Part shown: in pieces, positions 41,795-57,685 of the stretch
Position numbering within the stretch: the first letter of the stretch is position 1
Layout of the letters: every line of letters begins with the position of its first letter
NCBI GenBank assembly: GCA_965222605.1
Contig: OZ244960.1
Span: 3,776,001-3,840,000, forward strand
DNA from: Candidatus Latescibacterota bacterium
GTDB lineage: Bacteria; Latescibacterota; UBA2968
DNA: 64,000 bases
Reading direction: 5' to 3'
Translations under genes and position numbers: made by a program
The notes under the pieces: model-generated
Seen by the model: only the letters and a program-made list of their open reading frames with translations
The model's database searches: none
What the model was told of the DNA's origin: nothing

Positions 41795-43261
41795 ATGTCC
41801 GATAGACCCAATATTATTTTTATTTTGACTGATCAACATCGGTTGTCGGGCGTGGGTGCTTATGGCGAGACGCCATGCCGAACGCCCAATATTGATCGCC
41901 TTGCGGCAGAGGGCGTGTTGTTTGAAAATGCTTATACGGTTTATCCTGTGTGTAGTCCGGCTCGTGGTACGTTGCAAACCGGCGTGTATCCACATACCCA
42001 TGGCATTACGTCAAATATCCACGAGGTGGGGTGTAGTGTTCACGAGTTAGAGGATCGGCCCGAACTTTTGTCGCGGCGTCTGCAAGCGGCGGGGTACGGG
42101 ACGGGATATACGGGAAAGTGGCATCTCGGCTCTGAGAAGACACGGACATTTCAGGGGTCTAACAGGCCGTCTTCGCCTTCGCGTATCGGGTATGAAGGTC
42201 AGGATTTTGTCGGGCATGGCGGGGCTGGTTCGAGCTATTCGGATTATCGGGCATGGGCGCGGGCAAAGGGTTATGAGCCGGGCGTGAAGCCCTGGGCTGA
42301 GGCGACTACGAGGGTCCGCAATGGAGTCGGTGAGTTGACTGTGCCAACTGAGGCGACTGTGCCGGCTTATCTGGTGGATAATGTGATTGAGATGAGCAGG
42401 TCGTTTCGGGGACGGGATTTGCCATATTTTGTCAGTTTGAATTTTTGGGGACCACATGGACCGTATCACGCGACGGGTGAGTTTCTGGACTGGTATCGGG
42501 ATGTGGAGATTCCGCCGTGGGGAAATTACGAGTGGCCCTCGCGGGAGATTCCCGGTCCGCATCATTTGAAGATTCACTGGGATAAGGAAAATTTGACGTG
42601 GGAAGATTGGGCAATGGCGGTGCGCTATTATTATGCGCGGGTGTCGATGATTGACAGTCAGATTGGTCGGCTGTACGATTATTTGAAGGCGAGTGGGGAA
42701 TTGGATCATACGGTTCTGATTTTTACGGCGGATCACGGCGAGACTCTGGGCAGTCACGGGGGGTTGCTGGATAAGGGATGGCATCATTTTGAAGAGACGC
42801 ATCATGTTCCGATGATTATTCGGCTGCCGGATGGTTCGCATGCGGGCGAGCGCGTTTCAGAGTTTGCTTCGCTGGCTGATATGTATCCCACGATTTTGGA
42901 TCTGGCTGGTGGACATTACGATGGGGATGCGATTCACGGTGCGTCGCTGTTGCCGCTTGTTCGCGGTGAGGCGACGGCTTGGCGCGATGCTGTGGTGACT
43001 GAGTTTTTGGGTTTGGGCAATGTCGCTACGTCGATGAAAATGCTGCGTATGGGAGATTTAAAATACGGGTGTAATTTGACGGGGCAGGACGAGTTGTACG
43101 ATCTGGCAAATGATCCCTATGAGATGAATAATGTGATTAGTGATCCCGATTATGCCGATGATGTGGTGCGATTGAAGGCGCGATTGCAGCAGTGGATGGT
43201 GGAGACAAATGATCCGGCTTTGCGAATGTATCGCTGGCGCGAGCGAGAGGCGATTGGATAG
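41795..43261 (+). CDS. Sulfatase (Cys-type)
   Basis: PNIIFILTD, CSPARGTLQTG, GKWH, TADHG. Confidence 0.92.
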   Translation: MSDRPNIIFILTDQHRLSGVGAYGETPCRTPNIDRLAAEGVLFENAYTVYPVCSPARGTLQTGVYPHTHGITSNIHEVGCSVHELEDRPELLSRRLQAAGYGTGYTGKWHLGSEKTRTFQGSNRPSSPSRIGYEGQDFVGHGGAGSSYSDYRAWARAKGYEPGVKPWAEATTRVRNGVGELTVPTEATVPAYLVDNVIEMSRSFRGRDLPYFVSLNFWGPHGPYHATGEFLDWYRDVEIPPWGNYEWPSREIPGPHHLKIHWDKENLTWEDWAMAVRYYYARVSMIDSQIGRLYDYLKASGELDHTVLIFTADHGETLGSHGGLLDKGWHHFEETHHVPMIIRLPDGSHAGERVSEFASLADMYPTILDLAGGHYDGDAIHGASLLPLVRGEATAWRDAVVTEFLGLGNVATSMKMLRMGDLKYGCNLTGQDELYDLANDPYEMNNVISDPDYADDVVRLKARLQQWMVETNDPALRMYRWREREAIG

Positions 43262-43323
43262 GACTTTTGATTCTCATCCGCTATCCTGTCTATACTGTGG
43301 TATTGCACAAAGGAGAGATTCCC

Positions 43324-43614
43324 ATGCGAAAACAAATTATTCAATATACTTCGCCCATTGATGCACTGGTTGCAGTGACAAAGCGGTTGAGTACCTATGA
43401 GAGTCGGCAGCAGATGGACTCGGAGGAGTTCTTTGACCAGTATAGCCGGGGACAATTGTCAGATGACATTGTATTTGTAGAGTGGGCGAACGATTATCGC
43501 CACTATTTAGAACTCCGTCAAAAATTAGAGAAAATCCTGCCCGATACTGTGATACCCTCGGACAAACCAGACATTGATCAAATAATAAAAGAAGCTGAAG
43601 AGGCACGCAGGTAA
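43324..43614 (+). CDS. Orphan TumA-like antitoxin with atypical tail
   Basis: LSTYESRQQMDSEEFF...FVEWA pattern; no toxin gene follows. Confidence 0.6.
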   Translation: MRKQIIQYTSPIDALVAVTKRLSTYESRQQMDSEEFFDQYSRGQLSDDIVFVEWANDYRHYLELRQKLEKILPDTVIPSDKPDIDQIIKEAEEARR

Positions 43615-43637
43615 ATGGATAATGCGATGGAGGTGTT

Positions 43638-44111
43638 ATGAAAAAAAATAAGGATTGGCGAAATCAGGGAGTGCGGGTGGTGACGGGTGATCAGTTGGAT
43701 TTTAATACGCCGCAGACGCCGGGGATGACGCGGGCCGCGGCGATTAATCGCGCGAGTGCGGGTGCTGAAAAGCTGTGGGCGGGTACGGTTGAGATTCATC
43801 CGAATGCAAAGACCGGCGCGCATCATCACGGGGCACTGGAGAGTGTGATTTATGTGGTGCGCGGCAGGGCGCGCATGCGATGGGGCGATCAGTTGGAGTA
43901 TGTGGCAGAAGCGGGACCGGGTGATTTTATCTATGTGCCGCCTTATGTGCCGCATCAAGAGATCAATGCCAGCAAAGATGAACCTCTGGAATGCGTGCTG
44001 GTGCGCAGCGATCAGGAGCCTGTGGTGGTGAATCTGGATATTCCGGTTGTTGAAGAACCCGAGAACGTGTATTGGGTTGATCCGATACATCCGGATCCGA
44101 ACACTGATTGA
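43638..44111 (+). CDS. Cupin domain protein
   Basis: HHHGALES and PGDFIYVPPYVPHQE. Confidence 0.88.
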   Translation: MKKNKDWRNQGVRVVTGDQLDFNTPQTPGMTRAAAINRASAGAEKLWAGTVEIHPNAKTGAHHHGALESVIYVVRGRARMRWGDQLEYVAEAGPGDFIYVPPYVPHQEINASKDEPLECVLVRSDQEPVVVNLDIPVVEEPENVYWVDPIHPDPNTD

Positions 44112-44122
44112 CGAGGCCGTTT

Positions 44123-47100
44123 ATGGCAGATCAATTTTTTGAACATCCCATCCTCAATTCTCCCTACTACTGTCCAACGCGGCACTGGGAACTTGACGAT
44201 CAGGGCCAGCCAACACAGCGCATTGTTGAAAGCCGGCGGCGTGCAGATTTTATCACGCCTATTCCAAAGCCGAAGAAGCGCGGGGCGTCGAAGCGTCAGC
44301 AGCAGATTGTCTTTGACGAGGGTAAGGGACTATCTACTGAGGATCAGCAGTACGATGTTACGGCGATGGTAAATGAGATTCGGCGGCATGTCGATGGATG
44401 GCGAAGTCTGCCAAATCCCAATGATTGGCGTGTGACACCCGAAACCGCGCGTTTGCTCGTGCATTGGAGACACCATCACTTTAGCGATATTCGCCCGTTT
44501 TTCTGTCAGATTGAGGCGGTTGAGACAGCCATTTATCTGACTGAGGTCGCGCCAAATTTGGGGCAGTTGGGAAGGCGTTTAAGGGATCATCTTGCCAATG
44601 CCAATAATGACGCCAACCCGGAACTTATGCGCCTGGCACTGAAGATGGCTACCGGTGCTGGCAAGACCACTGTTATGGCGATGATTATTGCCTGGCAGAC
44701 AATTAACGCGGTGCGGCATCCCAATAGCAGAAGGTTCACGCGGGGGTTCCTGGTCATGACTCCCGGCATCACAATCAAAGATCGCCTGCGCGTACTTTTG
44801 CCCAATGATCCGGATAGCTACTATGCGAATCGAGAGTTGGTGCCGCAGGACATGCTCGGCGACCTCGACCGCGCTAAGATTGTCATTACCAACTACCACG
44901 CGCTGAGAAGGCGCGAAAGAATAGAGATTTCCAGAGGGGGTAGAGGACTTCTGCAAGGGCAGGGACCCGCACTCAATACGATGGAGACCGAGGGGCAGAT
45001 GATTCAGCGGGTTATGCCTGAGCTTATGGGTATCAGAAATATCAATGTGCTCAACGACGAGGGACACCACTGCTACCGGGAGAAGGTGGAAAAAGATGAT
45101 GAAGGACGGTTGACGGGAGACGACCGGCAAGAAGCAAATAAGAACAACGAGGCCGCCCGTGTGTGGATTTCAGGACTTGAGATGGTCAAGCGCAAGCTGG
45201 GTATCAGGCAAGTTATGGATTTGTCAGCGACGCCCTTTTTTCTTCGCGGGTCGGGCTATGCCGAGGGGACGCTGTTCCCATGGACGGTGAGCGATTTTTC
45301 GCTGATGGACGCGATTGAGTGTGGTATTGTCAAACTACCGCGTGTGCCCGTGGCTGACAATATACCCGGTGGAGATATGCCCAAGTTCCGCAATTTGTGG
45401 GATCACATCGGCACCGATATGCCCAGAGGAGGACGCCGCACAGCAAATAATCTCGATCCTTTAAGCCTACCCGTACCGTTGCAGACCGCGCTGGAGGCTC
45501 TCTATGGTCACTATGAGAAGACTGACGCATTGTGGGAAAAAGGCAAAGTGCTCGTTCCGCCCTGTTTTATTCTGGTTTGCAATAACACCTCAACCTCGAA
45601 GTTGGTCTATGATTACATATCGGGTTTTTACCGCGAGAATGAAGATGGTTCGAAGATGCTGGAGAATGGACGCTTGCCGCTGTTTCGCAACTTCGACGAG
45701 GTTGGTGACCGCCTCCCCATTCCCCCTACTTTGCTGATAGATAGCGAACAACTGGAATCTGGCGACGCTCTGGACAAGAATTTCCGCAAGATGGCTTCCG
45801 ACGAGATCGAACGCTTTCGCAGGGAGATCGTCGAGCGCACTGGCGATGTTCGCCAGGCCGAAAATATTACGGATCAGGATTTGCTTAGAGAGGTGATGAA
45901 TACAGTAGGCAAAGAAGGCCGGCTCGGTGAGTCTATTCGCTGTGTTGTATCGGTTTCCATGCTCACTGAGGGTTGGGATGCCAACAATGTCACTCATGTT
46001 CTTGGCGTGCGGGCTTTTGGAACGCAACTTTTGTGCGAGCAGGTTATTGGTCGCGCGTTGCGCCGCCAGTCTTATGATTTGAACGCGGACGGTCTGTTTG
46101 ATGTCGAATATGCCGATGTACTGGGGATCCCGTTTGATTTCACTGCGAAGCCAGTCGTTGCGCCGCCGCAGCCACCGCGGAAGACTGTCCAGGTCAAGGC
46201 GGTTACGCCAGAACGCGATGGGTGCGAGATTCGCTTTCCTCGTGTGGCGGGTTATCGGGTTGAGCTTCCGAGGGAGAAACTCAGGGCAGATTTTACCGAT
46301 GATTCGACACTGATACTCACGCCCGAACTCGTTGGGCCAACCAATACGAGAAACGAGGGTATCATTGGTGAGGGGGTCAATCTGAATCTTGAGCGTCTGG
46401 AGTCCATGCGTCCGGCCACGCTGGCGTTTCGCCTCACCAAGCATCTGATCTATACGAAGTGGCGCGATTCGGGCGAGGAGCCATCGTTGAATTTGTTCGG
46501 CCAGTTCAAGCGGATAACGAGCGAATGGCTGGATACTTGTCTCGTTTGCAAGGGCGGAACGTATCCGGCGCAGCTTGTGTACCAGAAACTGGCAGATATG
46601 GCTTGTGAGCGCATCAAAGACGCTATTAACCGCACACACATTGGCGAGCGTCCTATCAAGGTTCTGTTCGATTCCTATAACCCGATGGGTTCGAGCAGGC
46701 ATGTGAATTTCAGTACGTCCAAAACGAGGCGATGGCAGACCGATTCTCGTAAGTGTCACGTCAATTGGGTCGTTCTGGACAGCGATTGGGAGGCCGAGTT
46801 TTGCCGCGTGGCTGAGTCTCATCCGAAGGTGCAGGCTTATGTGAAGAATCACAACCTGGGGCTGGAGGTTCCCTATCGCTACGGTTCCAATACGCGCACG
46901 TACATTCCCGATTTCATTGTCCTGGTGGATGATGGGCAGGACGATCCCCTGCACCTCGTCGTCGAGATTAAGGGCTATCGCGGTGAGGATGCCAAGGTGA
47001 AGAAAAGCACGATGGAGACCTATTGGGTCCCCGGTGTGAATGGTCTTAGAGAATATGGACGCTGGGCCTTTGTCGAGTTTACGGATGTGTATGAGATTGA

Positions 47101-47269
47101 AAAGGAGTTCAACACGCTCATTGATCGCTTCAGTATCAGCGCAATAGGCACGCAGCCACGGGATGCTAAGACTTCTAATTTCAAAGATTTACTGGCATCC
47201 TGCCCGATTGATGGGATTGATATTGATCAGCTTCGTACGCGCGAATTGCCACGCGAGATTGAGTTGTAA
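44123..47269 (+). CDS. Type III restriction subunit-like helicase-nuclease (BPTD_3080-like)
   Basis: ATGAGKT, DEGHH, SAT, EGWD, QVIGRALR, PD...EIKG nuclease; extra tail of about 45 aa. Confidence 0.9.
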   Translation: MADQFFEHPILNSPYYCPTRHWELDDQGQPTQRIVESRRRADFITPIPKPKKRGASKRQQQIVFDEGKGLSTEDQQYDVTAMVNEIRRHVDGWRSLPNPNDWRVTPETARLLVHWRHHHFSDIRPFFCQIEAVETAIYLTEVAPNLGQLGRRLRDHLANANNDANPELMRLALKMATGAGKTTVMAMIIAWQTINAVRHPNSRRFTRGFLVMTPGITIKDRLRVLLPNDPDSYYANRELVPQDMLGDLDRAKIVITNYHALRRRERIEISRGGRGLLQGQGPALNTMETEGQMIQRVMPELMGIRNINVLNDEGHHCYREKVEKDDEGRLTGDDRQEANKNNEAARVWISGLEMVKRKLGIRQVMDLSATPFFLRGSGYAEGTLFPWTVSDFSLMDAIECGIVKLPRVPVADNIPGGDMPKFRNLWDHIGTDMPRGGRRTANNLDPLSLPVPLQTALEALYGHYEKTDALWEKGKVLVPPCFILVCNNTSTSKLVYDYISGFYRENEDGSKMLENGRLPLFRNFDEVGDRLPIPPTLLIDSEQLESGDALDKNFRKMASDEIERFRREIVERTGDVRQAENITDQDLLREVMNTVGKEGRLGESIRCVVSVSMLTEGWDANNVTHVLGVRAFGTQLLCEQVIGRALRRQSYDLNADGLFDVEYADVLGIPFDFTAKPVVAPPQPPRKTVQVKAVTPERDGCEIRFPRVAGYRVELPREKLRADFTDDSTLILTPELVGPTNTRNEGIIGEGVNLNLERLESMRPATLAFRLTKHLIYTKWRDSGEEPSLNLFGQFKRITSEWLDTCLVCKGGTYPAQLVYQKLADMACERIKDAINRTHIGERPIKVLFDSYNPMGSSRHVNFSTSKTRRWQTDSRKCHVNWVVLDSDWEAEFCRVAESHPKVQAYVKNHNLGLEVPYRYGSNTRTYIPDFIVLVDDGQDDPLHLVVEIKGYRGEDAKVKKSTMETYWVPGVNGLREYGRWAFVEFTDVYEIEKEFNTLIDRFSISAIGTQPRDAKTSNFKDLLASCPIDGIDIDQLRTRELPREIEL

Positions 47270-47679
47270 TGTTCTTACTCGATACCAATATCATCTCGGA
47301 AATACGCAAGGGCGACCGCTGCGATGGGCGGGTTGCAACTTGGTATGCCGGTATCAAGGGAGCCGATCTATTTCTCAGCGTGCTGGTGACCGGCGAGATT
47401 CGCAAAGGAATAGAGTTGATCCGCGATCGAGATTTACAGCAGGCAGAGGCTTTGGAACGCTGGTTGCAAGAGGTCTTACAGTCATTTTCTGGACGCATTC
47501 TGCCAATTGATGCCAAAGTTGCTGACACTTGGGGCCAGATGAACGCCATCCGGCCTATTCCTGTTATTGACGGCCTTTTGGTCGCCACTGCCAAAGTGCA
47601 TGACATGACTTTGGTGACACGCAACTCTGACGATATTAAAGGCTTAAGTGCAAGTGTGCTTAATCCATTCAGCGAGTAA
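47269..47679 (+). CDS. vapC: VapC PIN-domain toxin
   Basis: LLDTNIISE, GEIRKG, DGLLVATA, LVTRN..D, NPF; TAATG overlap with res. Confidence 0.92.
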   Translation: MFLLDTNIISEIRKGDRCDGRVATWYAGIKGADLFLSVLVTGEIRKGIELIRDRDLQQAEALERWLQEVLQSFSGRILPIDAKVADTWGQMNAIRPIPVIDGLLVATAKVHDMTLVTRNSDDIKGLSASVLNPFSE

Positions 47680-47836
47680 TATCGCCAGAATCGTTTTTAG
47701 TTGGACTCATAAGGGACAAGAAGTAAAGGTAATCAGGATGAATAGAGATGAGATATTGACTCTCCTTCGAGCGCAACCGTGGGAATGGATCAAGCCGGGT
47801 TTGTCACCGACACACTCACTAAGCAAGGATATGTAG

Positions 47837-50536
47837 ATGGCTAAACGTAGATCACCTAAAACTGTCACCACTATCCGGCACAAGGACGCATCACGAAAAA
47901 ATATCCCCACTGCCGAACACCAGCCACTCATGCGCGAGGAGGAGCAGACCCCTATTCCCCGTACCTATGCGCGACGCAACCGCGATCTCGATCCCCAATT
48001 GGTGTGGCGCGGCAAGGATGAGCAGGATTGGTCAGATTTGGTGGTACAGGCACCACCTCTGTACATTCAGGAGAAGGTCCATCCCAAGGTGCTAATCGAC
48101 GATTTGGTGCGCCGAAGCGAAGAAGACGCTGCGAGTGAGTCGGGCTTCCAGACGGACCTCTTTGCCGATTTCAATGGCTTGCCTTCGGAGGACGCCAAGA
48201 CCGAGTTCTACCAGCACGAGGCCAACTGGTCGAATCGCATGATCCTCGGCGATAGTTTGCAGGTGATGGCGTCGCTGGCAGAGCGCGAAGGACTGCGCGG
48301 CAAGGTGCAGTGTATCTACATCGATCCACCTTATGGGATTAAGTTCAATTCCAATTTCCAGTGGTCAACCACCAGCCGCGATGTGAGAGATGGTAAAGCC
48401 GAGCATATTACTCGAGAGCCAGAGCAGGTGAAAGCGTTTCGGGATACCTGGCGGGATGGGATTCATTCATACCTGACGTATCTGAGGGATAGACTGACGG
48501 TGGCGCGGGATTTGTTGACAGAGAGTGGGTCGGTGTTTGTGCAGATTGGGGATGAGAATGTGCATCGGGTGCGGGCTGTGATGGATGAGGTGTTTGGGGA
48601 GGAGAATTTTCTTTCATTAATTAGCTTTCAAACCTCTACAGGTAGGACTGCTGCAACACTTGATTCCGTAGCCGACTATCTCCTTTGGTATGCGAAAGAT
48701 CCGAGTTCAATCAAGTTTCGACAATTGTTTACAGTAGGAGAGGCTTTTAGATCTTCAGGTGAGGATTACCGCGGCAGATATGAGCTAGGAGACTTAACAT
48801 CCCAACATCCTAGCCAGACACGTAGCGTCGAAATTAGCTTTCGTGGTGAGTCCTTTTGGCCCTCGGCAAATAGGCAGTGGGCATTCGACCCGGAACGGAT
48901 AAATAGATTAGAAGCTGCCGATAGGGTAGTCAGATTTAGTTCCAGGCAGATTCGGTGGAAGAAGTATGAATTTGAACGTGCCAGAGGGAAGCTTAATAAT
49001 GTTTGGCCTGACACACAATTTGGAGCCTTCGCAAGCGATAAGATTTACGTTGTACAAACGAATCGCAAGGTCATTGAACGCTGCATCCTCATGACTACCG
49101 ACCCCGGCGATCTCGTTCTTGATCCAACTTGCGGCTCCGGCACAACCGCGTACGTCGCCGAGCAGTGGGGCCGTCGCTGGATTACCATTGACACTTCCCG
49201 CGTCGCGCTGGCACTTGCTCGTGCTCGTATCATGGGCGCTCGCTATCCCTACTACTTGCTTTCCGATAGCCGCGAGGGGCAGATCGAGGAGGCTGAGATA
49301 GAACGCCGGGCACCCTCGGAATCGCCGACCTATGGCAACATCCGCCAGGGTTTCGTGTACGAGCGCGTGCCCCACATCACCCTTAAGTCCATTGTCAATA
49401 ACGCCGAAATTGACGTGATTTGGGAGGCGTTTCAGGAGAAGTTGGAGCCTTTGCGCCAGCAACTCAATGAGGTTCTTGAGAAGAAATGGGAAGAGTGGGA
49501 GATTCCGCGCGAGGCTGAGGATGATTGGTCCAAACGCGCAAAGGATTTACATGCCGACTGGTGGAAGCAGCGGATCGCGCGGCAAAAGGAGATTGACGCA
49601 TCTATCGCAGCTAAGGCAGACTATGAGTACCTCTACGATAAGCCTTATGAGAACTCGCGGAAGGTGCGCGTTGCGGGGCCGTTTACTGTTGAGAGCATTT
49701 CGCCCCATCGCGTGCTATCAGTGGATGAGAACGACGAGTTCATTGAAGATGTCGAAGAAGCAAAGACCGGCTACGATTTCGCCCAGGTCATTCTGGATAA
49801 TCTGAAGACTGCGGGCGTCCAGCAGGCGCATAAGGAAGATCGGATTGCGTTTACGTACACTACGCCATGGCCAGGTGAGATGGTTTGCGCCGAGGGGCGT
49901 TATGCCGAAGGTGCGTCTGAGAAACGTGCAGGTATTTTCGTCGGGCCGGAGTTCGGTACTGTGTCTCGTCCTGACCTGGTGCAGGCTGCGCGGGAGGCTG
50001 CTGATGCGGGTTTTGATGTGCTGGTCGCTTGTGCCTTCAACTACGACGCACACACGACGGATTTCGAACGGCTGGGGCGCGTCCCGGTGCTCAAGGCGCG
50101 CATGAATGCCGACCTGCACATGGCCGATGACTTGAAGAATACAGGTAAGGGAAATTTGTTCGTTATTTTTGGTGAGCCGGATATCGACATACTGGATGCC
50201 GAAGATGGACAGATACAGGTGAAAGTAAATGGGGTGGATGTGTTCCACCCAAATACAGGAGAGGTTCGCAGCGATGGCCCGGAGGGTATCGCCTGTTGGT
50301 TTATTGATACGGACTACAATGAGGAGAGTTTCTTTGTGCGCCACGCTTATTTTCTCGGTGCCAGCGATCCGTACAAATCGTTGAAGACTACGCTCAAGGC
50401 CGAGATCAACGCGGACGCCTGGGCCACGCTCAAAAGCGATACTTCTCGTCCCTTTGAGAAGCCCGCATCTGGACGCATCGCTGTCAAGGTCATCAACCAC
50501 TTGGGGGATGAGGTGATGAAGGTTTTCAGGGTGTAA
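47837..50536 (+). CDS. Type III-like adenine DNA methyltransferase (Mod)
   Basis: DPPY motif IV precedes DPTCGSGTT motif I (beta class). Confidence 0.92.
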   Translation: MAKRRSPKTVTTIRHKDASRKNIPTAEHQPLMREEEQTPIPRTYARRNRDLDPQLVWRGKDEQDWSDLVVQAPPLYIQEKVHPKVLIDDLVRRSEEDAASESGFQTDLFADFNGLPSEDAKTEFYQHEANWSNRMILGDSLQVMASLAEREGLRGKVQCIYIDPPYGIKFNSNFQWSTTSRDVRDGKAEHITREPEQVKAFRDTWRDGIHSYLTYLRDRLTVARDLLTESGSVFVQIGDENVHRVRAVMDEVFGEENFLSLISFQTSTGRTAATLDSVADYLLWYAKDPSSIKFRQLFTVGEAFRSSGEDYRGRYELGDLTSQHPSQTRSVEISFRGESFWPSANRQWAFDPERINRLEAADRVVRFSSRQIRWKKYEFERARGKLNNVWPDTQFGAFASDKIYVVQTNRKVIERCILMTTDPGDLVLDPTCGSGTTAYVAEQWGRRWITIDTSRVALALARARIMGARYPYYLLSDSREGQIEEAEIERRAPSESPTYGNIRQGFVYERVPHITLKSIVNNAEIDVIWEAFQEKLEPLRQQLNEVLEKKWEEWEIPREAEDDWSKRAKDLHADWWKQRIARQKEIDASIAAKADYEYLYDKPYENSRKVRVAGPFTVESISPHRVLSVDENDEFIEDVEEAKTGYDFAQVILDNLKTAGVQQAHKEDRIAFTYTTPWPGEMVCAEGRYAEGASEKRAGIFVGPEFGTVSRPDLVQAAREAADAGFDVLVACAFNYDAHTTDFERLGRVPVLKARMNADLHMADDLKNTGKGNLFVIFGEPDIDILDAEDGQIQVKVNGVDVFHPNTGEVRSDGPEGIACWFIDTDYNEESFFVRHAYFLGASDPYKSLKTTLKAEINADAWATLKSDTSRPFEKPASGRIAVKVINHLGDEVMKVFRV

Positions 50537-50563
50537 TAGATTCCGCGGTGAAAAGGTGCATCG

Positions 50564-50597
50564 TTGCGAAAACAAGCGAAATAGGCTATTCTTGTTG
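50564..50597 (+). promoter_or_regulatory. Promoter overlapped by an AACAAG-N14-CTTGTT dyad
   Basis: TTGCGA-17-TATTCT; 50569-50597 matches 53629-53657 at 25/29. Confidence 0.5.
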
Positions 50598-50934
50598 GCA
50601 CAGAGAGATGCGAGTAGGCAAGCGAGATTGCTCGCTCACGCGATACAGGTAGTCTTATTTTTATGTACCAATTACCAGAAATAGCAAAATATAAAGGAGA
50701 TTATATTGAAGGAAAATACAACGACAAATAACTACAAATATGAAAAAGCGATAAATGCCTTGGTAGAGAAAGAAGTATCACAACCACTCTCTCCAATACA
50801 AAGAGTAGCTGCCGCGTTGTGGTTAAAAAATAATGACATCATCGAAACAATTAAGAGTGTTCTTGGTGTATTTGGATATGATGATAATCGTCTAAAAAAG
50901 ATGAATGAGTGGGGATTAAAGAAAACTCTTTTAG

Positions 50935-52641
50935 CCCGACTAATTCATGAACTGTAATGGTTGGGGTTGTTTGTCAGGCGGCATCGGTTCCAAGCATCAA
51001 AATGAGGGTGCTTTCTATCTTGTCTGCCGTCATAGGCGTCTTCATAGAGTTCAAGCAGCCCAAATCGTCCCCTGACAGGCTCTGCCAGTGTCAAAAGTAC
51101 AGACCGGTCCCTTGCCAGTCCTGTCTGTGGATAAGTCCGTGTATTTGTAAAGTCAGCAAGTGATGGGACAGACCCCTATTCCTTCCCCGTTGATGGGTTA
51201 TGGCACCGCCTTTGCCAGATTGCACAGGATTTTATCAAAAAGGTGTGGCAATGGAAATGACATAGGCAGATGGAAGGTGATCTTTGTTTTCAACTCACAG
51301 ACGCGTCCGGCGACTTTAAGGAAACGATTTTGGAGGGTATTGACCTGTGCGTTTATCCACGTTGTGCCTTGTAATCCGATGTGCGCTAAGGTGTGCAACA
51401 AGACATAGGCAGCCGAATGGAGGAAGAGGCGGAACTGATTGGCTCCAAAAGCGTGACAGGACGTGCGGTCTGAGTGGAGAAAGGTTTTGTGATTTTTAAT
51501 GAAGTTTTCCATCTGTCCGCGCGCACAATAGATATTTTGGTAGATAAAGGAGGCCCTTGAACTTTCAAGGTTGGTCACGACAAAGCGTGTGTTTTGGCCT
51601 CGGGTGGTGATTTCAGCTTTGCATAAGATGCGTCTGGCACAGGCCCAAGTCTGGGCTTGGTAATAAAATGAGGTAAAAAGTCGCACGGGCTTGCCGGTTT
51701 GTGCATAAAGGCTTTTGGTCTGATCCATCAGGGGCTTTGAAAGGGCTAAGAGTCGGGTATTGGCACTTTGTCCGAGGATAAAAAAGAGGTCCTTTGTCGC
51801 ACAAAAGTCCTGGACTTCTGGACTTGAGAAGTGGGCATCGCCTCGCAAAAAGAGTGCCACCTTTGGCCAAGCCTGACGAATATAAGCGACTAACCGCTTG
51901 AGAATGGTGACAATCTGTTTGCCATCAGGACGCACACCCGGACGTAAAATCGTCGTGATTAGCTTGCCCGATTGCCCTTCATAAATATGCAAAGGCTGGT
52001 AGGAGTAGGCACCCAAATACCCATTGAATAAGGACAACTGCTGCGTCCCATAAACCCTATCCTGCGTATCATCAATATCTAAGATGATCGACGAAGGCGG
52101 CTTTTTATACGAAGCAATAAAACAATCGACAAAGGCACGAGCAACGCGATACAAATCGCTTCTGCTCATCTGATTCTCAAACCGACTCATCGTGGGTTGA
52201 CTGGCCAAGTTCTCACCACTTATGGGCAAGCGATCACAGGCAACCTTGAAGCCGGGATCGCTGCGTAAGGCATTGCAATCATTGGCATCTTCATACCCAC
52301 AGGCAATTTGAAACACGCGCTGTTTGATCAACTCTGCCGTGCTATGCGCCACATAACTTTGATGCCGATGGTCTTTAATCGCGCGACTCAAACGTGATAA
52401 AATACCCGTTTTGGCCTCCACTTCTCGAAGCAATAAGGCTCCGCTATCGCTGGTGAGAATACCCCCATCAAAGGCGAGGTTGAGACGTTTGCCGAAAATG
52501 CTTGCCAAAGGAACCTTGCAATGATTATCTTGTGTGCTCACGGTAGTTTCTCCCAAGTTCATTGTTCAATGGTTATGCGTATAACCTAATATAATACAAT
52601 AACTTGAATAGGGAAACTACCTTTTTTATGAATTTTTCGGG
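50935..52641 (-). mobile_element. IS1380-family insertion sequence, 1707 bp
   Basis: Inverted repeats CCCGACTAATTCATGAA / CCCGAAAAATTCATAAA (14/17), TTAG target duplication. Confidence 0.9.
51198..52562 (-). CDS. IS1380-family DDE transposase
   Basis: FDGGILTSDSG, GYEDAND, LDIDDT, LRGD, YCARGQMENFIK. Confidence 0.93.
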   Translation of the reverse strand: MNLGETTVSTQDNHCKVPLASIFGKRLNLAFDGGILTSDSGALLLREVEAKTGILSRLSRAIKDHRHQSYVAHSTAELIKQRVFQIACGYEDANDCNALRSDPGFKVACDRLPISGENLASQPTMSRFENQMSRSDLYRVARAFVDCFIASYKKPPSSIILDIDDTQDRVYGTQQLSLFNGYLGAYSYQPLHIYEGQSGKLITTILRPGVRPDGKQIVTILKRLVAYIRQAWPKVALFLRGDAHFSSPEVQDFCATKDLFFILGQSANTRLLALSKPLMDQTKSLYAQTGKPVRLFTSFYYQAQTWACARRILCKAEITTRGQNTRFVVTNLESSRASFIYQNIYCARGQMENFIKNHKTFLHSDRTSCHAFGANQFRLFLHSAAYVLLHTLAHIGLQGTTWINAQVNTLQNRFLKVAGRVCELKTKITFHLPMSFPLPHLFDKILCNLAKAVP

Positions 52642-53347
52642 TTAGAAGAGATTGCCCAAGATTGTCATTATAAGTTCTTCACTTCACCATTAGGGTTATG
52701 GAGCAAGTCTGACCTAAAAAAGCGCATAGGTTGGATTGACGCTGAAGAACTGAAAGGAGAAATAGCGCAATTAAACATGCGTAATTCCATTATACACCAT
52801 GCAGATATGAAATCTATAGTTGTGTACAATTCGAAAAAAGGTATAATTCACAAAAAGGAGATATTGGAAACCCTTTCTCGTATGACAAAATTGCACATAT
52901 TGCTCCATGCGATATCAAGATATACAAGAAAAATAAGTAATATTGCCAATTTCTCAATCTCATTGAGAACGACGGATGATAACAAAAATATTATGCTATG
53001 TTTTTTGCCTTTTATATGTGGATTTTTATCATGGAAACATAACGAATATCGGGAAAATTTAAGAGCAGGATGGGAAGCTTCTATCATAAACCAAGCTGTT
53101 GGTAAACGTATTGATGACCGTATAGAGGTGTTTGAGAAATACAAAAAAGAATACGGTGCAAAATATCGTGGTGAACCGATAGAGGAGAGAACAGTTGTAT
53201 TCGGTGGAACTTATTCTGAACTCTGTACAAAACTACGCGAAGGATGTGAAGGGGCAGAACAATAGTCTTATTGTCCATCGCACTGCGATGAAGATATAAT
53301 CGTCTGTGAAGCATTAAGCACGCGAAGTTAAGGGAGCAGTTTCGGAT

Positions 53348-53557
53348 ATGGCCAAACACTATGTTGAGCACGAACACCAGAAAGTATCTCACGATGCCTT
53401 GCCAGAGGCGCAAGGAACGCTGGCGGACTTTCTCCGGGGACATATCGGCGTCCTGCATAGTGGTGAACATGTCCCCGGCGGTGATCGCATGTCGGAAGAT
53501 AGTGGCAAAAAATTTGCCGAGGGTTTGCTAAAACAACGTCAGCAAGGGGAACAATGA
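53348..53557 (+). CDS. Orphan antitoxin-like peptide followed by a vapC stub
   Basis: 69 aa; its stop overlaps (ATGA) MILTGTGP, which resembles a PIN toxin start MILxDTGP. Confidence 0.45.
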   Translation: MAKHYVEHEHQKVSHDALPEAQGTLADFLRGHIGVLHSGEHVPGGDRMSEDSGKKFAEGLLKQRQQGEQ

Positions 53558-53710
53558 TCCTGACGGGTACGGGCCCTTATTATTTTGAATTTCATCAAAA
53601 CCTGAAGAAAATTCTGCTCTTTATTATAAAAACAAGTAGAATAGGCTATCCTTGTTGACGTCTTTTTAAGTTTGCCGAATTTTTTGATCATCGAAGCACT
53701 GGAGATGAAC

Positions 53711-55060
53711 ATGAAGATAAAAGAAATAGAGATTCGATCCCTATTCGGGTATTTTAACCACAAGATACCTCTGAAGGAGGATGACCGTATTACCATAATC
53801 CACGGACCGAATGGCGTTGGCAAGACAACGGTTCTTCGTCTTATCTCTGACCTCTTTGAGGGGCATTTTCACGCATTGCTTGGTACTCCCTTTGACCGCA
53901 TTGTGGTGCGTTTCAAGCCCAAAGGTAGCTTGGCAGTTATTCCTACAAAAGAAAAAGGAGCAAAAGATTTTGGGAAGCTGGAATTGATCTACCGTTTTGG
54001 GAAAGAACGGATTGAGCATACTGTGTGGTTACTAAGGGGACAAGGGAGACATAGACGATTGTCCCCCAGTATCTTAGAAAGACTGATTGACAATATAGAA
54101 CGTATTAGCCCATCTGAGTGGAGCGATGACACTGGCGAAATAATGTCTTTTGATGAAGTGATTTCCCGTTACGAGCATTTCTTACCCCCTGATATCCGTG
54201 AATCTATGATCTCGGTTCCAGAGGAAATAGAGAGCTTATTAGAACAAATCAATATTGTAGTTGTTGAAACTCAGAGACTCTTCACAGGGCATAAAGACGA
54301 ACGCGAAGAACGAACGTTTCGATTTAGAAGAAGAGAAATTTCTGTACAGCGGATGACGGTAGAGCAATACTCGGAGGATATGGTCGCCAGAATAGAGAGC
54401 TACCAAAGGAAATCCGGTGAGCTTGGCGTATCTTTAGATAGCTCTTTCCCCCAACGACTTTTATTTGACTCAGAATTGCCGAAAATCGCGACAGAAAATT
54501 ACATTAGACAAGAATATACTGATCAGTCGAGATATAGAGATCGATTGATGGAGGCTAGCCTCCTTGCTGCTGAAACCCCGGTACCTCTCTCCTCTGAAAG
54601 TCTAAAAGAGCATGAACGAAAGGTTTTATGGGCCTACCTCAATGACGTGAAACAGAAACTCCAAGTTTTCGATCCTCTTCTCCGCCGCGTGGAATTGTTT
54701 AAAGATATTGTCAACTCTCGTTTCTCATATAAGAAATTCAAAGTAGATAGAGAGAAGGGTTTCATTTTCGAATCGGATCACGATGGATCTATTGTGCCTC
54801 CAGGAGCACTGTCTTCTGGTGAGCAGCACGAACTTGTCCTGACTTATGAACTTTTGTTCAAGGCACCGGCAGGCTCTCTCATTTTTATAGACGAACCCGA
54901 GTTGTCTCTGCATGTGTCATGGCAGAGACTGTTTCTCGAGGATATTGCCAAAATATCGGAGTTGGCGGACCTTGATTTTCTTGTGGCTACCCATTCTCCA
55001 TCTATCGTCTATGACCGGCGTGATCTCATGGTTGAGCTGGCAGGTGAAAAGGAAGGCTAA
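53711..55060 (+). CDS. ABC/AAA_21-type ATPase, PARIS AriA-like
   Basis: GPNGVGKT, LSSGEQ, IDEPELSLH, ATHSP. Confidence 0.85.
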   Translation: MKIKEIEIRSLFGYFNHKIPLKEDDRITIIHGPNGVGKTTVLRLISDLFEGHFHALLGTPFDRIVVRFKPKGSLAVIPTKEKGAKDFGKLELIYRFGKERIEHTVWLLRGQGRHRRLSPSILERLIDNIERISPSEWSDDTGEIMSFDEVISRYEHFLPPDIRESMISVPEEIESLLEQINIVVVETQRLFTGHKDEREERTFRFRRREISVQRMTVEQYSEDMVARIESYQRKSGELGVSLDSSFPQRLLFDSELPKIATENYIRQEYTDQSRYRDRLMEASLLAAETPVPLSSESLKEHERKVLWAYLNDVKQKLQVFDPLLRRVELFKDIVNSRFSYKKFKVDREKGFIFESDHDGSIVPPGALSSGEQHELVLTYELLFKAPAGSLIFIDEPELSLHVSWQRLFLEDIAKISELADLDFLVATHSPSIVYDRRDLMVELAGEKEG

Positions 55061-55064
55061 CATT

Positions 55065-55919
55065 ATGGAGCGGACAGGCGACGACATCGCCAACGAAGTA
55101 CTTTTTGAACGTGCCAAATACAATGGACCTGTGCTCCTCCTCGAAGGAGATAATGACGTGAAATTTTTCTACCAGTTTGTTAAAGAGGCTGAAATGCCGA
55201 TTATCCCTGCTTGGGGTAAGGAGAATGTCCTTGAAGCTGTCGAGAAACTTGAATCGGATGGTATCGTACAGGGCTTCTTAGGAATCGTTGATGCAGACTT
55301 TGGGCACGTTGATGGTTCGTTGCCGACTTCCCGGAATGTCGTTGTCACTGACGACCATGACGTAGAAATGATGATTATTAGAACCAGAGCATTTGATGCG
55401 GTCTTGCGTGAGTTGGGGTCAAAAGATAAAATTCGCAGATTCCAAGGTACAGAACATGGAATACGTCATAAAATGATGCAGAAAGCACTGATTATAGGAC
55501 ACTTCCGCCACTTATCTGTGACAAATCACCTTCGCTTGCGTTTTGAAGGGTTGCGTTTTGATCGTTTCGTTGACCGTAATACGTTGAAAATGGATAAGAA
55601 CAAAATGATAAATAACGTTTTTCAGTTAACAAAAAACCCACAATTAGAGGTGGAAGATATTCGAGACAAGTTTTTGGAGCTTGTAGAAGATGACAATGAC
55701 GATCCTTATCAAATCTGCTGTGGGCACGACTTTATTGCGATCTTTGGCATCGCGTTGAGAAAGGTTATAGGAAGCAAGTTAGAGAGAGAGACGCGTCCTG
55801 AAGTATTGGGTAGTATGCTACGTCTTGCGTACGACAGCGACGATTTCCGCCAGACTAAGCTCTACTCGGATGCAAAGCGGTGGTCTAAAAGTAATCAAGA
55901 CTACAATATATTCATTTGA
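55065..55919 (+). CDS. DUF4435 TOPRIM-like protein, PARIS AriB-like
   Basis: LLEGDND, GIVDADF, CGHD; 4 bp downstream of the ATPase. Confidence 0.8.
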   Translation: MERTGDDIANEVLFERAKYNGPVLLLEGDNDVKFFYQFVKEAEMPIIPAWGKENVLEAVEKLESDGIVQGFLGIVDADFGHVDGSLPTSRNVVVTDDHDVEMMIIRTRAFDAVLRELGSKDKIRRFQGTEHGIRHKMMQKALIIGHFRHLSVTNHLRLRFEGLRFDRFVDRNTLKMDKNKMINNVFQLTKNPQLEVEDIRDKFLELVEDDNDDPYQICCGHDFIAIFGIALRKVIGSKLERETRPEVLGSMLRLAYDSDDFRQTKLYSDAKRWSKSNQDYNIFI

Positions 55920-55981
55920 AGCGAGATTTCTAAAAAAATTATTCAATATACCTTCCCCACCAATGGTCTGGTTGACCACAC

Positions 55982-57685
55982 ATGAATTTTAATACCTCCA
56001 ACAATACCTTCCGCCAACTCATGGGCAATGGGCTGAGTTATTGCGTGCCGCCGTTTCAGCGCGACTACTCTTGGGGGGCCGACGAATGGGATGACTTGTG
56101 GCAGGATATTGTCGGGCTGTTTGGCGAGGACCCGGAGCCAGCGCACTACATGGGCTATCTGGTGCTACAATCCGCTGACAGCAGGGTGTTCGACATTATT
56201 GACGGACAGCAACGCATGACGACGCTTAGTCTGTTGATGCTGGCGGCGGTGTCTCATTTAACGGATCTGGCGGTGCCGGGCGACCTGAACGACCCGCAGT
56301 ACCGACGCGCGCAGCAGTTGCGTCACAACTACATCGGCTATCTGGATCCGGTGAGCCTGGTGGCACGCTCCAAGCTGACCCTGAATCGCCACGATGATGG
56401 TTTTTATCAGAACTATCTCGTTCCCTTAGAGCGCCTGCCGCAGCGCGGTTTGAACGCCTCGGAGCATTTATTGCGCCGGGCTTTTACCTTCTTTAAGGAA
56501 CGCGTCAGGGGACACTCACATGACGATGGCGAGGCGGTGGCGCGCTTTGTTGATGTTGCAGTGGATAAGCTATTCTTTACGGTTATCACAGTTACGGATG
56601 AGTTGAATGCCTTCAAAGTCTTCGAGACGCTGAATGCTCGCGGTGTGCGCTTATCGGCTACCGATTTGCTGAAGAATTACTTGTTTTCAGTCATATCGCG
56701 CGGCGGCATGCATGAATCTGAACTCAAGATACTGGAAAATCGCTGGGAAGATATCGTCGGGTTGCTGGGCAGCGAAAGTTTTCCAGAGTTTTTGCGGGTG
56801 TTCTGGAATAGTCGCAACAGGTTGGTACGCAGAACCTACTTGTTCAAAACCATCCGCGACGCAATTAACGACAGGAGCAAGGCGTTTGCGTTAATTCGCG
56901 ATATGGATAGGTGCGCACGGGTTTATACGGCGTTGCGCAGCCCAGAGGACAGTTTATGGGCAGAGAAGGAGCGCGATAACCTGGCGCAGTTGCAGATGTT
57001 CAGCGTGCGCCAACCACTGGCGGTGTTGATGGCGGTGTATGATCGTTTTGCGGAAGACGACAGAGCTGGATTTGGGCGCTTTTTGCGAGCTATTGCAGTG
57101 GTGTCCTTTCGCTACAATGTGATATGTGGTCGCCAAAGCAATGAGCAGGAAGTGGTGTATAACCAGATCGCTTGCGGAATTTCAGAAGGCCGCATTGATA
57201 ATATTGTTGCCGCGATTGCGGCACTGCGTCCGGTTTATCCCGGGGATGGAGAGTTTAGAACGGCTTTTTCCAATAAAGCACTACGGACCTCCAGCAGTCG
57301 CAACAAGAAGATAGCGCGTTTTATCTTGTTCCGTTTGGAAGAGTACCTATCCGGAAAACGGTTTGATTTTGAGAGTGCGAAGTACAGTATTGAGCATGTA
57401 TTGCCGGAGAATCCCGACGATGGCTGGGAAGCATTTGATGATCGACAGCGGGAAGCATCTACCTATCGTTTGGGTAATATGACACTCCTGGAAGCGGCCC
57501 CTAATCGACGTATCGGAAATGCGAGATTCCCTGAAAAGTGCCCTGTTTATGGTGCGAGTGAGTTCTCCATAACCCGCAAGTTGTCGCAAGAATACGATAT
57601 GTGGACCGTGGATAAGGTTCGCTCTCGACAAGAATGGATGGCGAGACAGGCTGCGAGTATATGGCAGATATCATTTAACATTTAA
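55982..57685 (+). CDS. DUF262-DUF1524 GmrSD-like type IV restriction nuclease
   Basis: PPFQRDYSW, DGQQR, FETLNARG, IEHVLP...LGNMTLL. Confidence 0.9.
   Translation: MNFNTSNNTFRQLMGNGLSYCVPPFQRDYSWGADEWDDLWQDIVGLFGEDPEPAHYMGYLVLQSADSRVFDIIDGQQRMTTLSLLMLAAVSHLTDLAVPGDLNDPQYRRAQQLRHNYIGYLDPVSLVARSKLTLNRHDDGFYQNYLVPLERLPQRGLNASEHLLRRAFTFFKERVRGHSHDDGEAVARFVDVAVDKLFFTVITVTDELNAFKVFETLNARGVRLSATDLLKNYLFSVISRGGMHESELKILENRWEDIVGLLGSESFPEFLRVFWNSRNRLVRRTYLFKTIRDAINDRSKAFALIRDMDRCARVYTALRSPEDSLWAEKERDNLAQLQMFSVRQPLAVLMAVYDRFAEDDRAGFGRFLRAIAVVSFRYNVICGRQSNEQEVVYNQIACGISEGRIDNIVAAIAALRPVYPGDGEFRTAFSNKALRTSSSRNKKIARFILFRLEEYLSGKRFDFESAKYSIEHVLPENPDDGWEAFDDRQREASTYRLGNMTLLEAAPNRRIGNARFPEKCPVYGASEFSITRKLSQEYDMWTVDKVRSRQEWMARQAASIWQISFNI

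Follow-up and report, generated by a model that had tools for sequence, protein, structure and literature searches.

How a toxin gene can be maintained without a recognizable antitoxin gene is the question raised by a restriction-modification (R-M) operon of Candidatus Latescibacterota. The operon lies in a 64,000-nucleotide stretch of contig OZ244960.1 (positions 3,776,001 to 3,840,000; hereafter the window, to which all plain coordinates refer) and carries vapC, encoding a PIN-domain toxin, between the restriction gene res and the methyltransferase gene mod. A preliminary description, made from the letters of the window, had suggested that the restriction subunit Res acts as the antitoxin through a VapB-like tail, and had named a recent deletion fusing res to vapB as the alternative. 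The first of these ideas stood in silico, by homology, co-occurrence and co-folding, and the second did not. We put the probability that Res now serves as the antitoxin of the embedded FitB-like VapC at about 0.72.

The three genes form an operon-like array on the + strand, with res at 44123-47269, vapC at 47269-47679, a spacer of 157 nt and mod at 47837-50536. The res open reading frame (ORF) is unbroken from a TTG at 44108 to 47269 and ends in ...SNFKDLLASCPIDGIDIDQLRTRELPREIEL; the ATG at 44123 is likely the true start, since the N-termini of Res homologues read MADQFFEHP. Counted from this ATG, Res has 1048 amino acids (aa), while the residue numbers given below count from the TTG and equal the protein number plus 5. 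Res is a type III-like restriction subunit with a superfamily 2 (SF2) helicase, a PD-(D/E)xK nuclease and a C-terminal extension, and it matches Pfam ResIII and RE_endonuc as well as the NCBIfam model NF046055 (BPTD_3080-family restriction endonuclease; 1351.7 bits, cut-off 800). ORF residues 11-1004 cover positions 1-969 of the 970 in this model, and about 49 residues (~1005-1053) are extra, so that Res does continue past its nuclease domain, as had been described. The extra part consists of a linker (47120-47170, + strand, residues 1005-1021) that differs among homologues in both sequence and length, followed by the tail itself (47171-47266, + strand, residues 1022-1053), where a short helix, FKDLLAS (1025-1031), precedes an extended Arg-rich stretch. 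The description of the junction also held: the res stop codon overlaps the start of an intact vapC in TAATG (47267-47271, + strand; TAA at 47267-47269 shares one base with the ATG), and mod comes next. This overlap suggests translational coupling of res and vapC. No separate vapB was found between 47100 and 47837, where the only ORF (62 aa) contains a relic of the start of an mntA gene, and a search of the whole genome with 39 aa of the tail at E<=10 recovered only the tail itself.

To identify what the tail resembles, we inspected 80 loci encoding relatives of the window VapC and, in each, the ORF whose end lies at the start of the toxin gene. For the closest relatives (45-66% identical), this ORF encodes either a small protein or a Res, and it ends in the motif of the Res tail; the stand-alone small proteins are those of L010, L011/L090, L013, L014 and L016 (..NFKELLAACPLDGIDLDMTREPPRDIDV in L016), and the Res carriers those of L009 and L012. 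More distant VapCs are preceded by antitoxins of the Phd/YefM or RHH type, whose C-termini show a looser form of the same pattern. In BLASTP, the 49-aa tail matched the protein of L016, a RelB-type antitoxin according to Pfam, at E 3e-12 and that of L010 at E 2e-9. An alignment of 14 sequences, nine Res tails and the C-termini of five stand-alone proteins, spans their whole length and has the residues K, L, A, P and R invariant. A 40-position profile built from this alignment had 245 matches at E<=1e-3 among 1.84 billion representative proteins, 32 of them at E<=1e-10. The best 150 include 149 proteins of 38-204 aa in which the match lies mostly at or near the C-terminal end; the remaining one, a leucine-rich-repeat protein, is a false match. 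When 49 of the matched proteins were scanned, a few had HTH_37, RelB, MazE/AbrB, RHH_1 or DUF6364 N-termini and most had no Pfam domain. The presence of one tail motif on such varied N-terminal parts therefore points to a portable toxin-binding module, carried here by a restriction enzyme. The Res that carries it is itself free of RHH, AbrB, Phd and HTH domains in Pfam and NCBIfam scans. The tail was assigned to no family of Pfam or NCBIfam; these models cover the DNA-binding domains of antitoxins and not their C-terminal peptides. With phmmer, it had no match among the PDB sequences at E<=10. With the VapC profile leading to FitB (see below), the BLASTP, alignment and profile results bear out the likeness to VapB/FitA C-termini that had been noted at first reading, and the identification of the tail as a toxin-binding C-terminus of this type, with Res as antitoxin, is well supported in silico. 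The unfused state was seen in a Vicinamibacterales genome (L090, the same as L011), which has res, a separate tail ORF (L090 2045-2608, equal to L011 2435-3001), vapC and mod; this ORF encodes 188 aa and has a DUF2283 domain and repeats rich in Gly, Trp and Arg (GGRWPVAGG...).

The small tail-bearing proteins also bear on an explanation in which the tail would act as a free small antitoxin, translated from an in-frame start codon within the 3' end of res or released by clipping of the linker. Stand-alone homologues of 67-88 aa (L013, L014) have no recognizable DNA-binding domain, and a short free peptide can suffice, since most small tail-profile proteins likewise have no Pfam domain. The linker is variable and predicted to be disordered: in the AlphaFold2 model of full-length Res the predicted local distance difference test (pLDDT) is below 50 starting at residue 1011, although this model is poor as a whole. 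An intragenic antitoxin was reportedly described in Rpn proteins by Zhong et al. in 2023, a study cited in PMC12707154, which would be a precedent. A word-index search of proteins of 32-104 aa with a 59-aa piece of the tail gave a sole candidate, a 77-aa fragment of a Res C-terminus (P0001); a gene caller has once called such a product here. Against this, no convincing internal start preceded by a ribosome-binding site was apparent on reading the window sequence: untailed Res proteins share the conserved in-frame M969, and an AAGGAG at ~47101 is not followed by an in-frame ATG, GTG or TTG. A free peptide also needs no fusion, whereas the frame has been kept among Res proteins at 66-76% identity and antitoxins have reached Res by three separate fusion routes (see below). 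We therefore regard a free tail antitoxin, whether translated separately or clipped off, as unlikely.

The toxin encoded at 47269-47679 (+ strand) has 136 aa and a PIN domain (Pfam, 5e-14). Of its acidic residues, D5, E43 and D101 do not vary in an alignment of 49 sequences, in which D122 reaches at least 90% conservation, and the best solved relative of the toxin in profile searches is FitB (2h1o, 2h1c, 2bsq; E 1e-30). We co-folded VapC, with the alignment of 49 sequences, and Res residues 1000-1053, with an alignment of 44, alongside three controls. The pair scored 0.75 (runs 0.77, 0.75 and 0.74) against 0.01 for the best control, which corresponds to a verdict of 'supports binding', a mark attained by 58 of 80 solved complexes and by 2 of 110 mismatched pairs. 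Contact agreement between runs was at least 87% and partner pLDDT at least 59. The predicted interface joins tail residues 1022-1048 with VapC residues 4-7, 43-44, 96-101, 118 and 122, that is, the tail lies across the PIN active site; the FKDLLAS helix packs against VapC helices, and residues 1037-1048, R1043 and R1045 among them, extend to the active site. According to passages of PMC3384007, the extended C-terminus of the antitoxin wraps the PIN domain in VapBC and FitAB, with an arginine (Arg64 in Shigella VapB, Arg68 in FitA) bound to the catalytic Glu and Asp. FitA Arg68 was placed near R1043/R1045 with only weak guidance from L143, a FitA-like antitoxin encoded by the window's genome, whose match to FitA in the PDB reached no better than E 0.09.

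The same model speaks to another possibility, that the tail is a docking peptide and VapC an extra nuclease subunit, which would, for instance, cut phage RNA close to restricted DNA, or that two Res would be bridged through a VapC dimer. PIN toxins usually dimerize. Type III enzymes are Res1Mod2 by the title of PMC4005696. HEPN ribonuclease (RNase) domains have repeatedly been fused to R-M nucleases and helicases, as stated in part of PMC3710099. The predicted interface, on the other hand, spans the catalytic residues D5, E43, D101 and D122, as it does where VapB and FitA inhibit their toxins, and the tail is homologous to ordinary antitoxin tails. Docking thus appears very unlikely beside an inhibitory role of the tail.

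If Res is the antitoxin, tail and toxin should be found together, and the preliminary description had proposed a search for other loci with the same arrangement. Such loci exist: the sister genome G019 and six loci of Dehalococcoidia have res with the tail, vapC and mod. In the latter group, 59 of 401 genomes had a Res match, and we inspected the best 30 loci. All six tailed Res genes among them are followed by vapC and then mod (L089, L091, L092, L093, L095 and L101), with res/vapC overlaps of 1, 4 or 17 nt in all six, and vapC of the window type occurs in none of the 24 loci with untailed Res (tblastn, E<=1e-3); because the loci are related, 6/6 against 0/24 overstates their independence. 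We also compared truncation of res, which affected none of 13 fused and four of 17 assessable unfused loci (L096, L100, L111, L115); the hand-calculated P of ~0.09 is not significant, the loci are related and the result was not used.

The fusion is also old. A search with Res residues 900-1053 gave 7975 matches at E<=1e-5, of which 120 homologues were listed; since they were ranked by likeness to a query that contains the tail, this list favours tailed forms. The tail is present in 72 of the 120, in 69 by regular expression and in P0077, P0046 and P0102 by eye. The others comprise eight with a second type of tail only, 38 that end 28-42 residues past GRWAF and two with other extensions. Across 44 tailed Res with 66-76% identity to the window Res (three close relatives in this alignment are 95-96% identical), K1026, A1030, P1033, R1043 and R1049 of the tail are invariant, as are ATGAGKT, DEGHH and D935...E953-I-K955 of the enzyme. 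The res-tail/vapC/mod order is kept in G019 at 96% DNA identity. Contigs from other studies cross the junction, namely 906-nt contigs of X4 and X7 across 47111-48016, with 8 differences, and a 317-nt contig of X3 across 47156-47472.

These data leave next to no room for a fusion that arose lately, by an accidental deletion in the window genome alone, or for an assembly error. Within the window's phylum the Res family occurs in 58 of 168 genomes and the tail in only three genomes of one genus, which would fit an accident of limited spread. The fusion is nevertheless found in Dehalococcoidia as well and in 72 of the 120 listed Res clusters, and misassembly is excluded because contigs of other studies span tail, vapC and mod, in addition to the order being kept in G019. 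Of the alternative put forward at first, it is the word recent that fails: the fusion is diversified (66-76% identity) and present in at least two phyla. Its origin likely was a deletion of the DNA-binding domain of an antitoxin.

The number of substitutions between relatives indicates that the system has been maintained. In the Res core, G019 shows 67.5 synonymous and 17.5 non-synonymous differences, a ratio of non-synonymous to synonymous rates (dN/dS) of 0.073, and G020 a ratio of 0.079; a dN/dS of 0.07 indicates that Res is under purifying selection. In comparison with G019, the first 240 codons of Mod have 25 synonymous and two non-synonymous differences. Mod is a type III-like DNA methyltransferase of ~900 aa (N6_N4_Mtase, 2.5e-33, in Pfam; MTase_III, 1363 bits, in PADLOC) with DPPY and a CGSG S-adenosylmethionine-binding motif visible in the translation. 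Its centre (~48590-49130, alignment columns 251-450) has been swapped between the window genome (G000) and G019, with 10-26 identical residues per 50 columns there and 47-50 elsewhere, while res, tail and vapC are unchanged. The replaced part is probably the target-recognition domain, and the swap would hence give another specificity. Taken together, the low dN/dS of Res and the swap of the recognition part of Mod form the pattern of an R-M system in active use.

Several observations weigh against Res as the antitoxin of VapC, or against the strength of the evidence for it. The co-fold score of 0.75 reflects likeness and may be partly memory, because FitAB and VapBC complexes had already been solved, and the toxicity, neutralization and binding of VapC are all predictions. 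The AlphaFold2 model of Res is too poor for placing the tail on Res (mean pLDDT 50.5, predicted template modelling score 0.36). Two other FitB-like PIN toxins are encoded in the genome with their own antitoxins, whose C-termini have a like general pattern, and these paralogous antitoxins may neutralize VapC in trans. In comparison with G019, the 49 codons of tail and linker have three synonymous and four non-synonymous differences (three and five with G020), a non-synonymous ratio above that of the core, though the changes are very few. In a tree of Res cores made with FastTree from 107 rows with the tail removed, the small clade of the window lies among untailed Res and apart from the main tailed clade. 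This nesting indicates a second association of tail and vapC, and the tail-vapC segment was probably gained by recombination and not co-inherited with the window Res. Finally, G020 has an intact tailed Res (a frame of 1049 aa) without vapC and with no mod within 5 kb; in L113, which has the second type of tail, only 59 nt separate res from mod and there is no toxin; and the vapC of L093 is truncated at 116 aa. The preliminary description had named tailed Res without vapC as evidence against its proposal. Such a case was thus encountered once, in G020, where we read the absence of vapC as secondary loss because the DNA match stops 10 nt into vapC. At the vapC site of G020 there is a gene for a 370-aa Fic-domain-like protein (L128 5708-6820), with a HPFLDGNGRLGR motif read by eye.

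The toxin-less tails, the truncated toxin and the two paralogous antitoxins would also suit a tail that is a harmless vestige beside a VapC that is dead or neutralized by another antitoxin. We consider this highly improbable: five tail residues are invariant in 44 diverged Res, the co-occurrence of tail and toxin is complete in the sample, the catalytic residues of VapC are kept, its gene is nearly identical to that of G019, and a search of the genome with the tail gave no other copy.

Analysis of the DNA between res and mod clarifies how the tail and vapC came together with the window Res. DNA matches of relatives end at ~47100 and restart at ~47814, ~20 nt before mod, and loose ends at 47097 in other sequencing runs continue into an allele without the tail. 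The vapC of the window and the G019 copy (L009 3001-3408) differ at 1 of 408 bases and at no synonymous site, while the flanking genes have synonymous distances (dS) of 0.11 (res) and 0.17 (mod). The near identity of vapC suggests that lineages recently exchanged the cassette. Within the spacer between vapC and mod, ~60 nt from the 5' end of an mntA gene are preserved (47738-47795, + strand; MNRDEILTLLRA...); as DNA they align with the start of mntA in G002 and in the second R-M locus of G000, and of 12 residues compared with MntA of G002, nine are identical (E 2e-5). This relic indicates that an earlier MntA/HepT cargo was displaced by the tail-vapC cassette. The match seams, the untailed allele, the identity of vapC and the relic therefore lead us to consider the C-terminal extension of Res, vapC and the spacer (47101-47813) as one exchangeable cassette, with recombination taking place between the conserved res end and the conserved beginning of mod.

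Other members of the family carry other genes at this place. Among the same 30 loci of Dehalococcoidia, six have separate MntA and HepT genes, one MntA alone and eight nothing; one each has ParE with an RHH antitoxin, Bro-N, and an aspartyl protease with MNT; six have tail and vapC, four have other Res fusions and two were not assessable. In the genus and phylum of the window the cargo includes MntA/HepT, VapB with a PIN toxin, Schlafen/AlbA_2-HATPase, HTH-peptidase M78, an SDH protease and DUF1828. By these contents, the gap from res to mod is a general cargo slot of the NF046055-type R-M family. The commonest cargo after res in the window's phylum that is not a toxin-antitoxin (TA) module is a Schlafen/AlbA_2 protein of 350-500 aa with HATPase_c_4 (L151, L161, L162, L165, L174). 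The genome of the window has a second R-M locus of the NF046055 family (L120, G000:C1:5861500-5871500), in which a res-mod gap of 2.1 kb contains MntA, a membrane-like ORF of 162 aa, a piece of the start of a mod gene, a VapB gene and a truncated gene for a PIN protein, and which looks like stacked, decaying cargo.

The other fusions indicate that the joining of an antitoxin to Res was not a single event. In L110 (1894-2301, +) and L112 (1165-1572, -), a whole MntA nucleotidyltransferase domain continues the reading frame of Res; a HepT gene follows in L112, and in L110 only 254 nt separate the fusion from mod. The second type of Res tail, ..AGGxxPxIExIPRRRSxL, occurs in L099 and L113. The PIN protein downstream in L099 is unrelated to the window VapC by BLASTP (E 0.58), and in all eight other loci with a PIN of the L099 type the same tail forms the C-terminus of a stand-alone VapB (MRTTxxxDDxLL...). 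Both tails occur in tandem in two Res proteins, P0046 and P0102 (..NFKELLAAAPLEGVDLSRQRDFPRN.. followed by ..WLADAGGSEPQIEDIPRRRSEL), downstream of which two different PIN genes would be expected. Judged by these loci, antitoxins have become part of Res by at least three routes, as two types of VapB tail and as a whole MntA.

Comparison with known systems shows which parts of the arrangement are familiar. As in FitAB of Neisseria gonorrhoeae (2h1o, 2bsq) and Shigella VapBC, a PIN toxin is preceded directly by the coding sequence of an Arg-bearing C-terminal peptide that overlaps the toxin start, and binding over the active site is predicted. In contrast to these systems, the window locus has no antitoxin gene of its own, no DNA-binding domain and no usual autoregulation, and the peptide ends a restriction subunit of ~1050 aa. 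MntA-HepT is the commonest cargo of the slot, and in L110 and L112 MntA is fused where the VapB tail sits in the window, but MntA is a whole enzyme domain and not a peptide, and the window keeps only the ~60-nt relic of its gene. The R-M part resembles classical type III systems of the EcoP15I kind in having an SF2 helicase and PD-(D/E)xK Res and an N6/N4 methyltransferase Mod. It differs from them, where mod precedes res, in the order res, vapC, mod (res comes first in all relatives examined), in its distinct Res family (NF046055) and distinct Mod of ~900 aa, and in the cargo slot between the genes.

A functional parallel is PrrC, which according to parts of PMC3710099 and PMC12707154 is kept silent by association with the restriction enzyme EcoprrI; PrrC and PARIS are termed RM guardians in PMC12707154. 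Both systems have the gene of an RNase toxin inside an R-M operon, and the proposed model for the window shares the silencing on the restriction enzyme. PrrC is an ABC-ATPase-HEPN anticodon nuclease bound non-covalently to the type Ic enzyme EcoprrI and has a known phage trigger (Stp), whereas the window has a 136-aa PIN toxin, a covalently fused antitoxin peptide and a type III-like Res. That TA and defence genes are embedded in R-M and other systems is known from the portions seen of PMC3710099, PMC5499597 and Payne et al. 2024 (bioRxiv 10.1101/2024.01.29.577857), and the slot of the window family fits with this by holding MntA/HepT, VapBC, ParDE, Schlafen-like ATPases, HTH-peptidase and Bro-N. 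In the examples given in those portions, from Hma, BREX, DISARM and type I R-M, the embedded genes are neighbours, whereas here the antitoxin lies inside Res. The 2017 survey of PIN domains (PMC5499597) states, in the part consulted, that no direct interaction between TA and R-M had been shown and that the antitoxins of PIN genes in R-M operons are sometimes 'missing'. A fusion of Res with an antitoxin was not found described in the literature searched, the scope of which excluded supplements such as Supplementary Figure S7 of PMC5499597, which could bear on this. What appears new here, from comparison of the sequences, is that the missing antitoxin is located as the C-terminus of Res, and that the fusion is conserved across phyla and has been reinvented with other antitoxins.

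The surroundings of the genes were also analysed. A scan of 43500-51200 revealed no promoter or terminator site between res, vapC and mod; in total it gave four promoter-like sites where 6.8 would be expected and 12 terminator-like sites against an expectation of 7.0. No match to Rfam was found in 43000-52000. A metatranscriptome (X16) has a 230-nt contig over 47151-47378, with a depth of 2.7 and one inserted base, which is no evidence of transcription, since RNA libraries can contain DNA. Downstream lies a defence island (51198-57685) with an insertion sequence DDE transposase on the minus strand (51198-52562), an AAA_21/AriA-like ATPase (53672-55060) and a DUF4435/AriB-like protein (54912-55919), which as a pair resemble PARIS, followed by a GmrSD-like type IV enzyme (55982-57685; PADLOC HEC-06).

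These data are consistent with a mechanism in which an ancestral VapB lost its DNA-binding N-terminal domain, so that the neutralizing peptide would now form the last ~32 residues of Res, joined through the variable linker. Because vapC starts on the stop codon of res, each VapC would be made right after a full-length Res. The tail would wrap VapC, inserting R1043 and R1045 into the PIN active site, and VapC would be held inactive on the restriction complex. Since the usual DNA-binding domain is gone, expression of vapC would follow that of the R-M operon. VapC would then be neutralized only as long as production of full-length Res continues; if the operon were lost, if res acquired a nonsense, frameshift or insertion-sequence mutation, or if Res were shut off or destroyed at infection, the RNase would be set free and growth would stop.

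Which benefit would have favoured such an arrangement can be stated only roughly, and the candidates are not exclusive. Policing of the loss of res or of the operon, that is, addiction, may be the main one, with chances a little short of even; it is attractive because the antitoxin comes only from a complete res frame. A phage-triggered backup like that of PrrC, in which VapC would be freed and infection aborted once a phage inhibits or degrades Res, as the preliminary description had proposed, could equally drive fusion and is possible as the main benefit, although we would not call it probable. That the main benefit is something else is doubtful.

TA modules and small defence genes are common in R-M operons, and evidence of a physical link has so far come only from PrrC and EcoprrI. 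The fusion makes it possible to test the role of TA modules within R-M systems, be it stabilizing them, guarding against anti-restriction or policing the loss of restriction. It also flags 'orphan' toxins that annotation pipelines would label as lacking an antitoxin, and the tail is predicted to be a portable PIN-inhibiting tag of 30 residues. On a broader and more tentative view, selection might repeatedly make the restriction subunit the antitoxin, giving a restriction-coupled suicide switch for which the slot serves as a socket for exchangeable toxin cassettes. If this is true, survival of the cell would need continued translation of full-length Res, and mutations that abolish restriction, loss of the operon or a shut-off or destruction of Res by phage would unleash the RNase.

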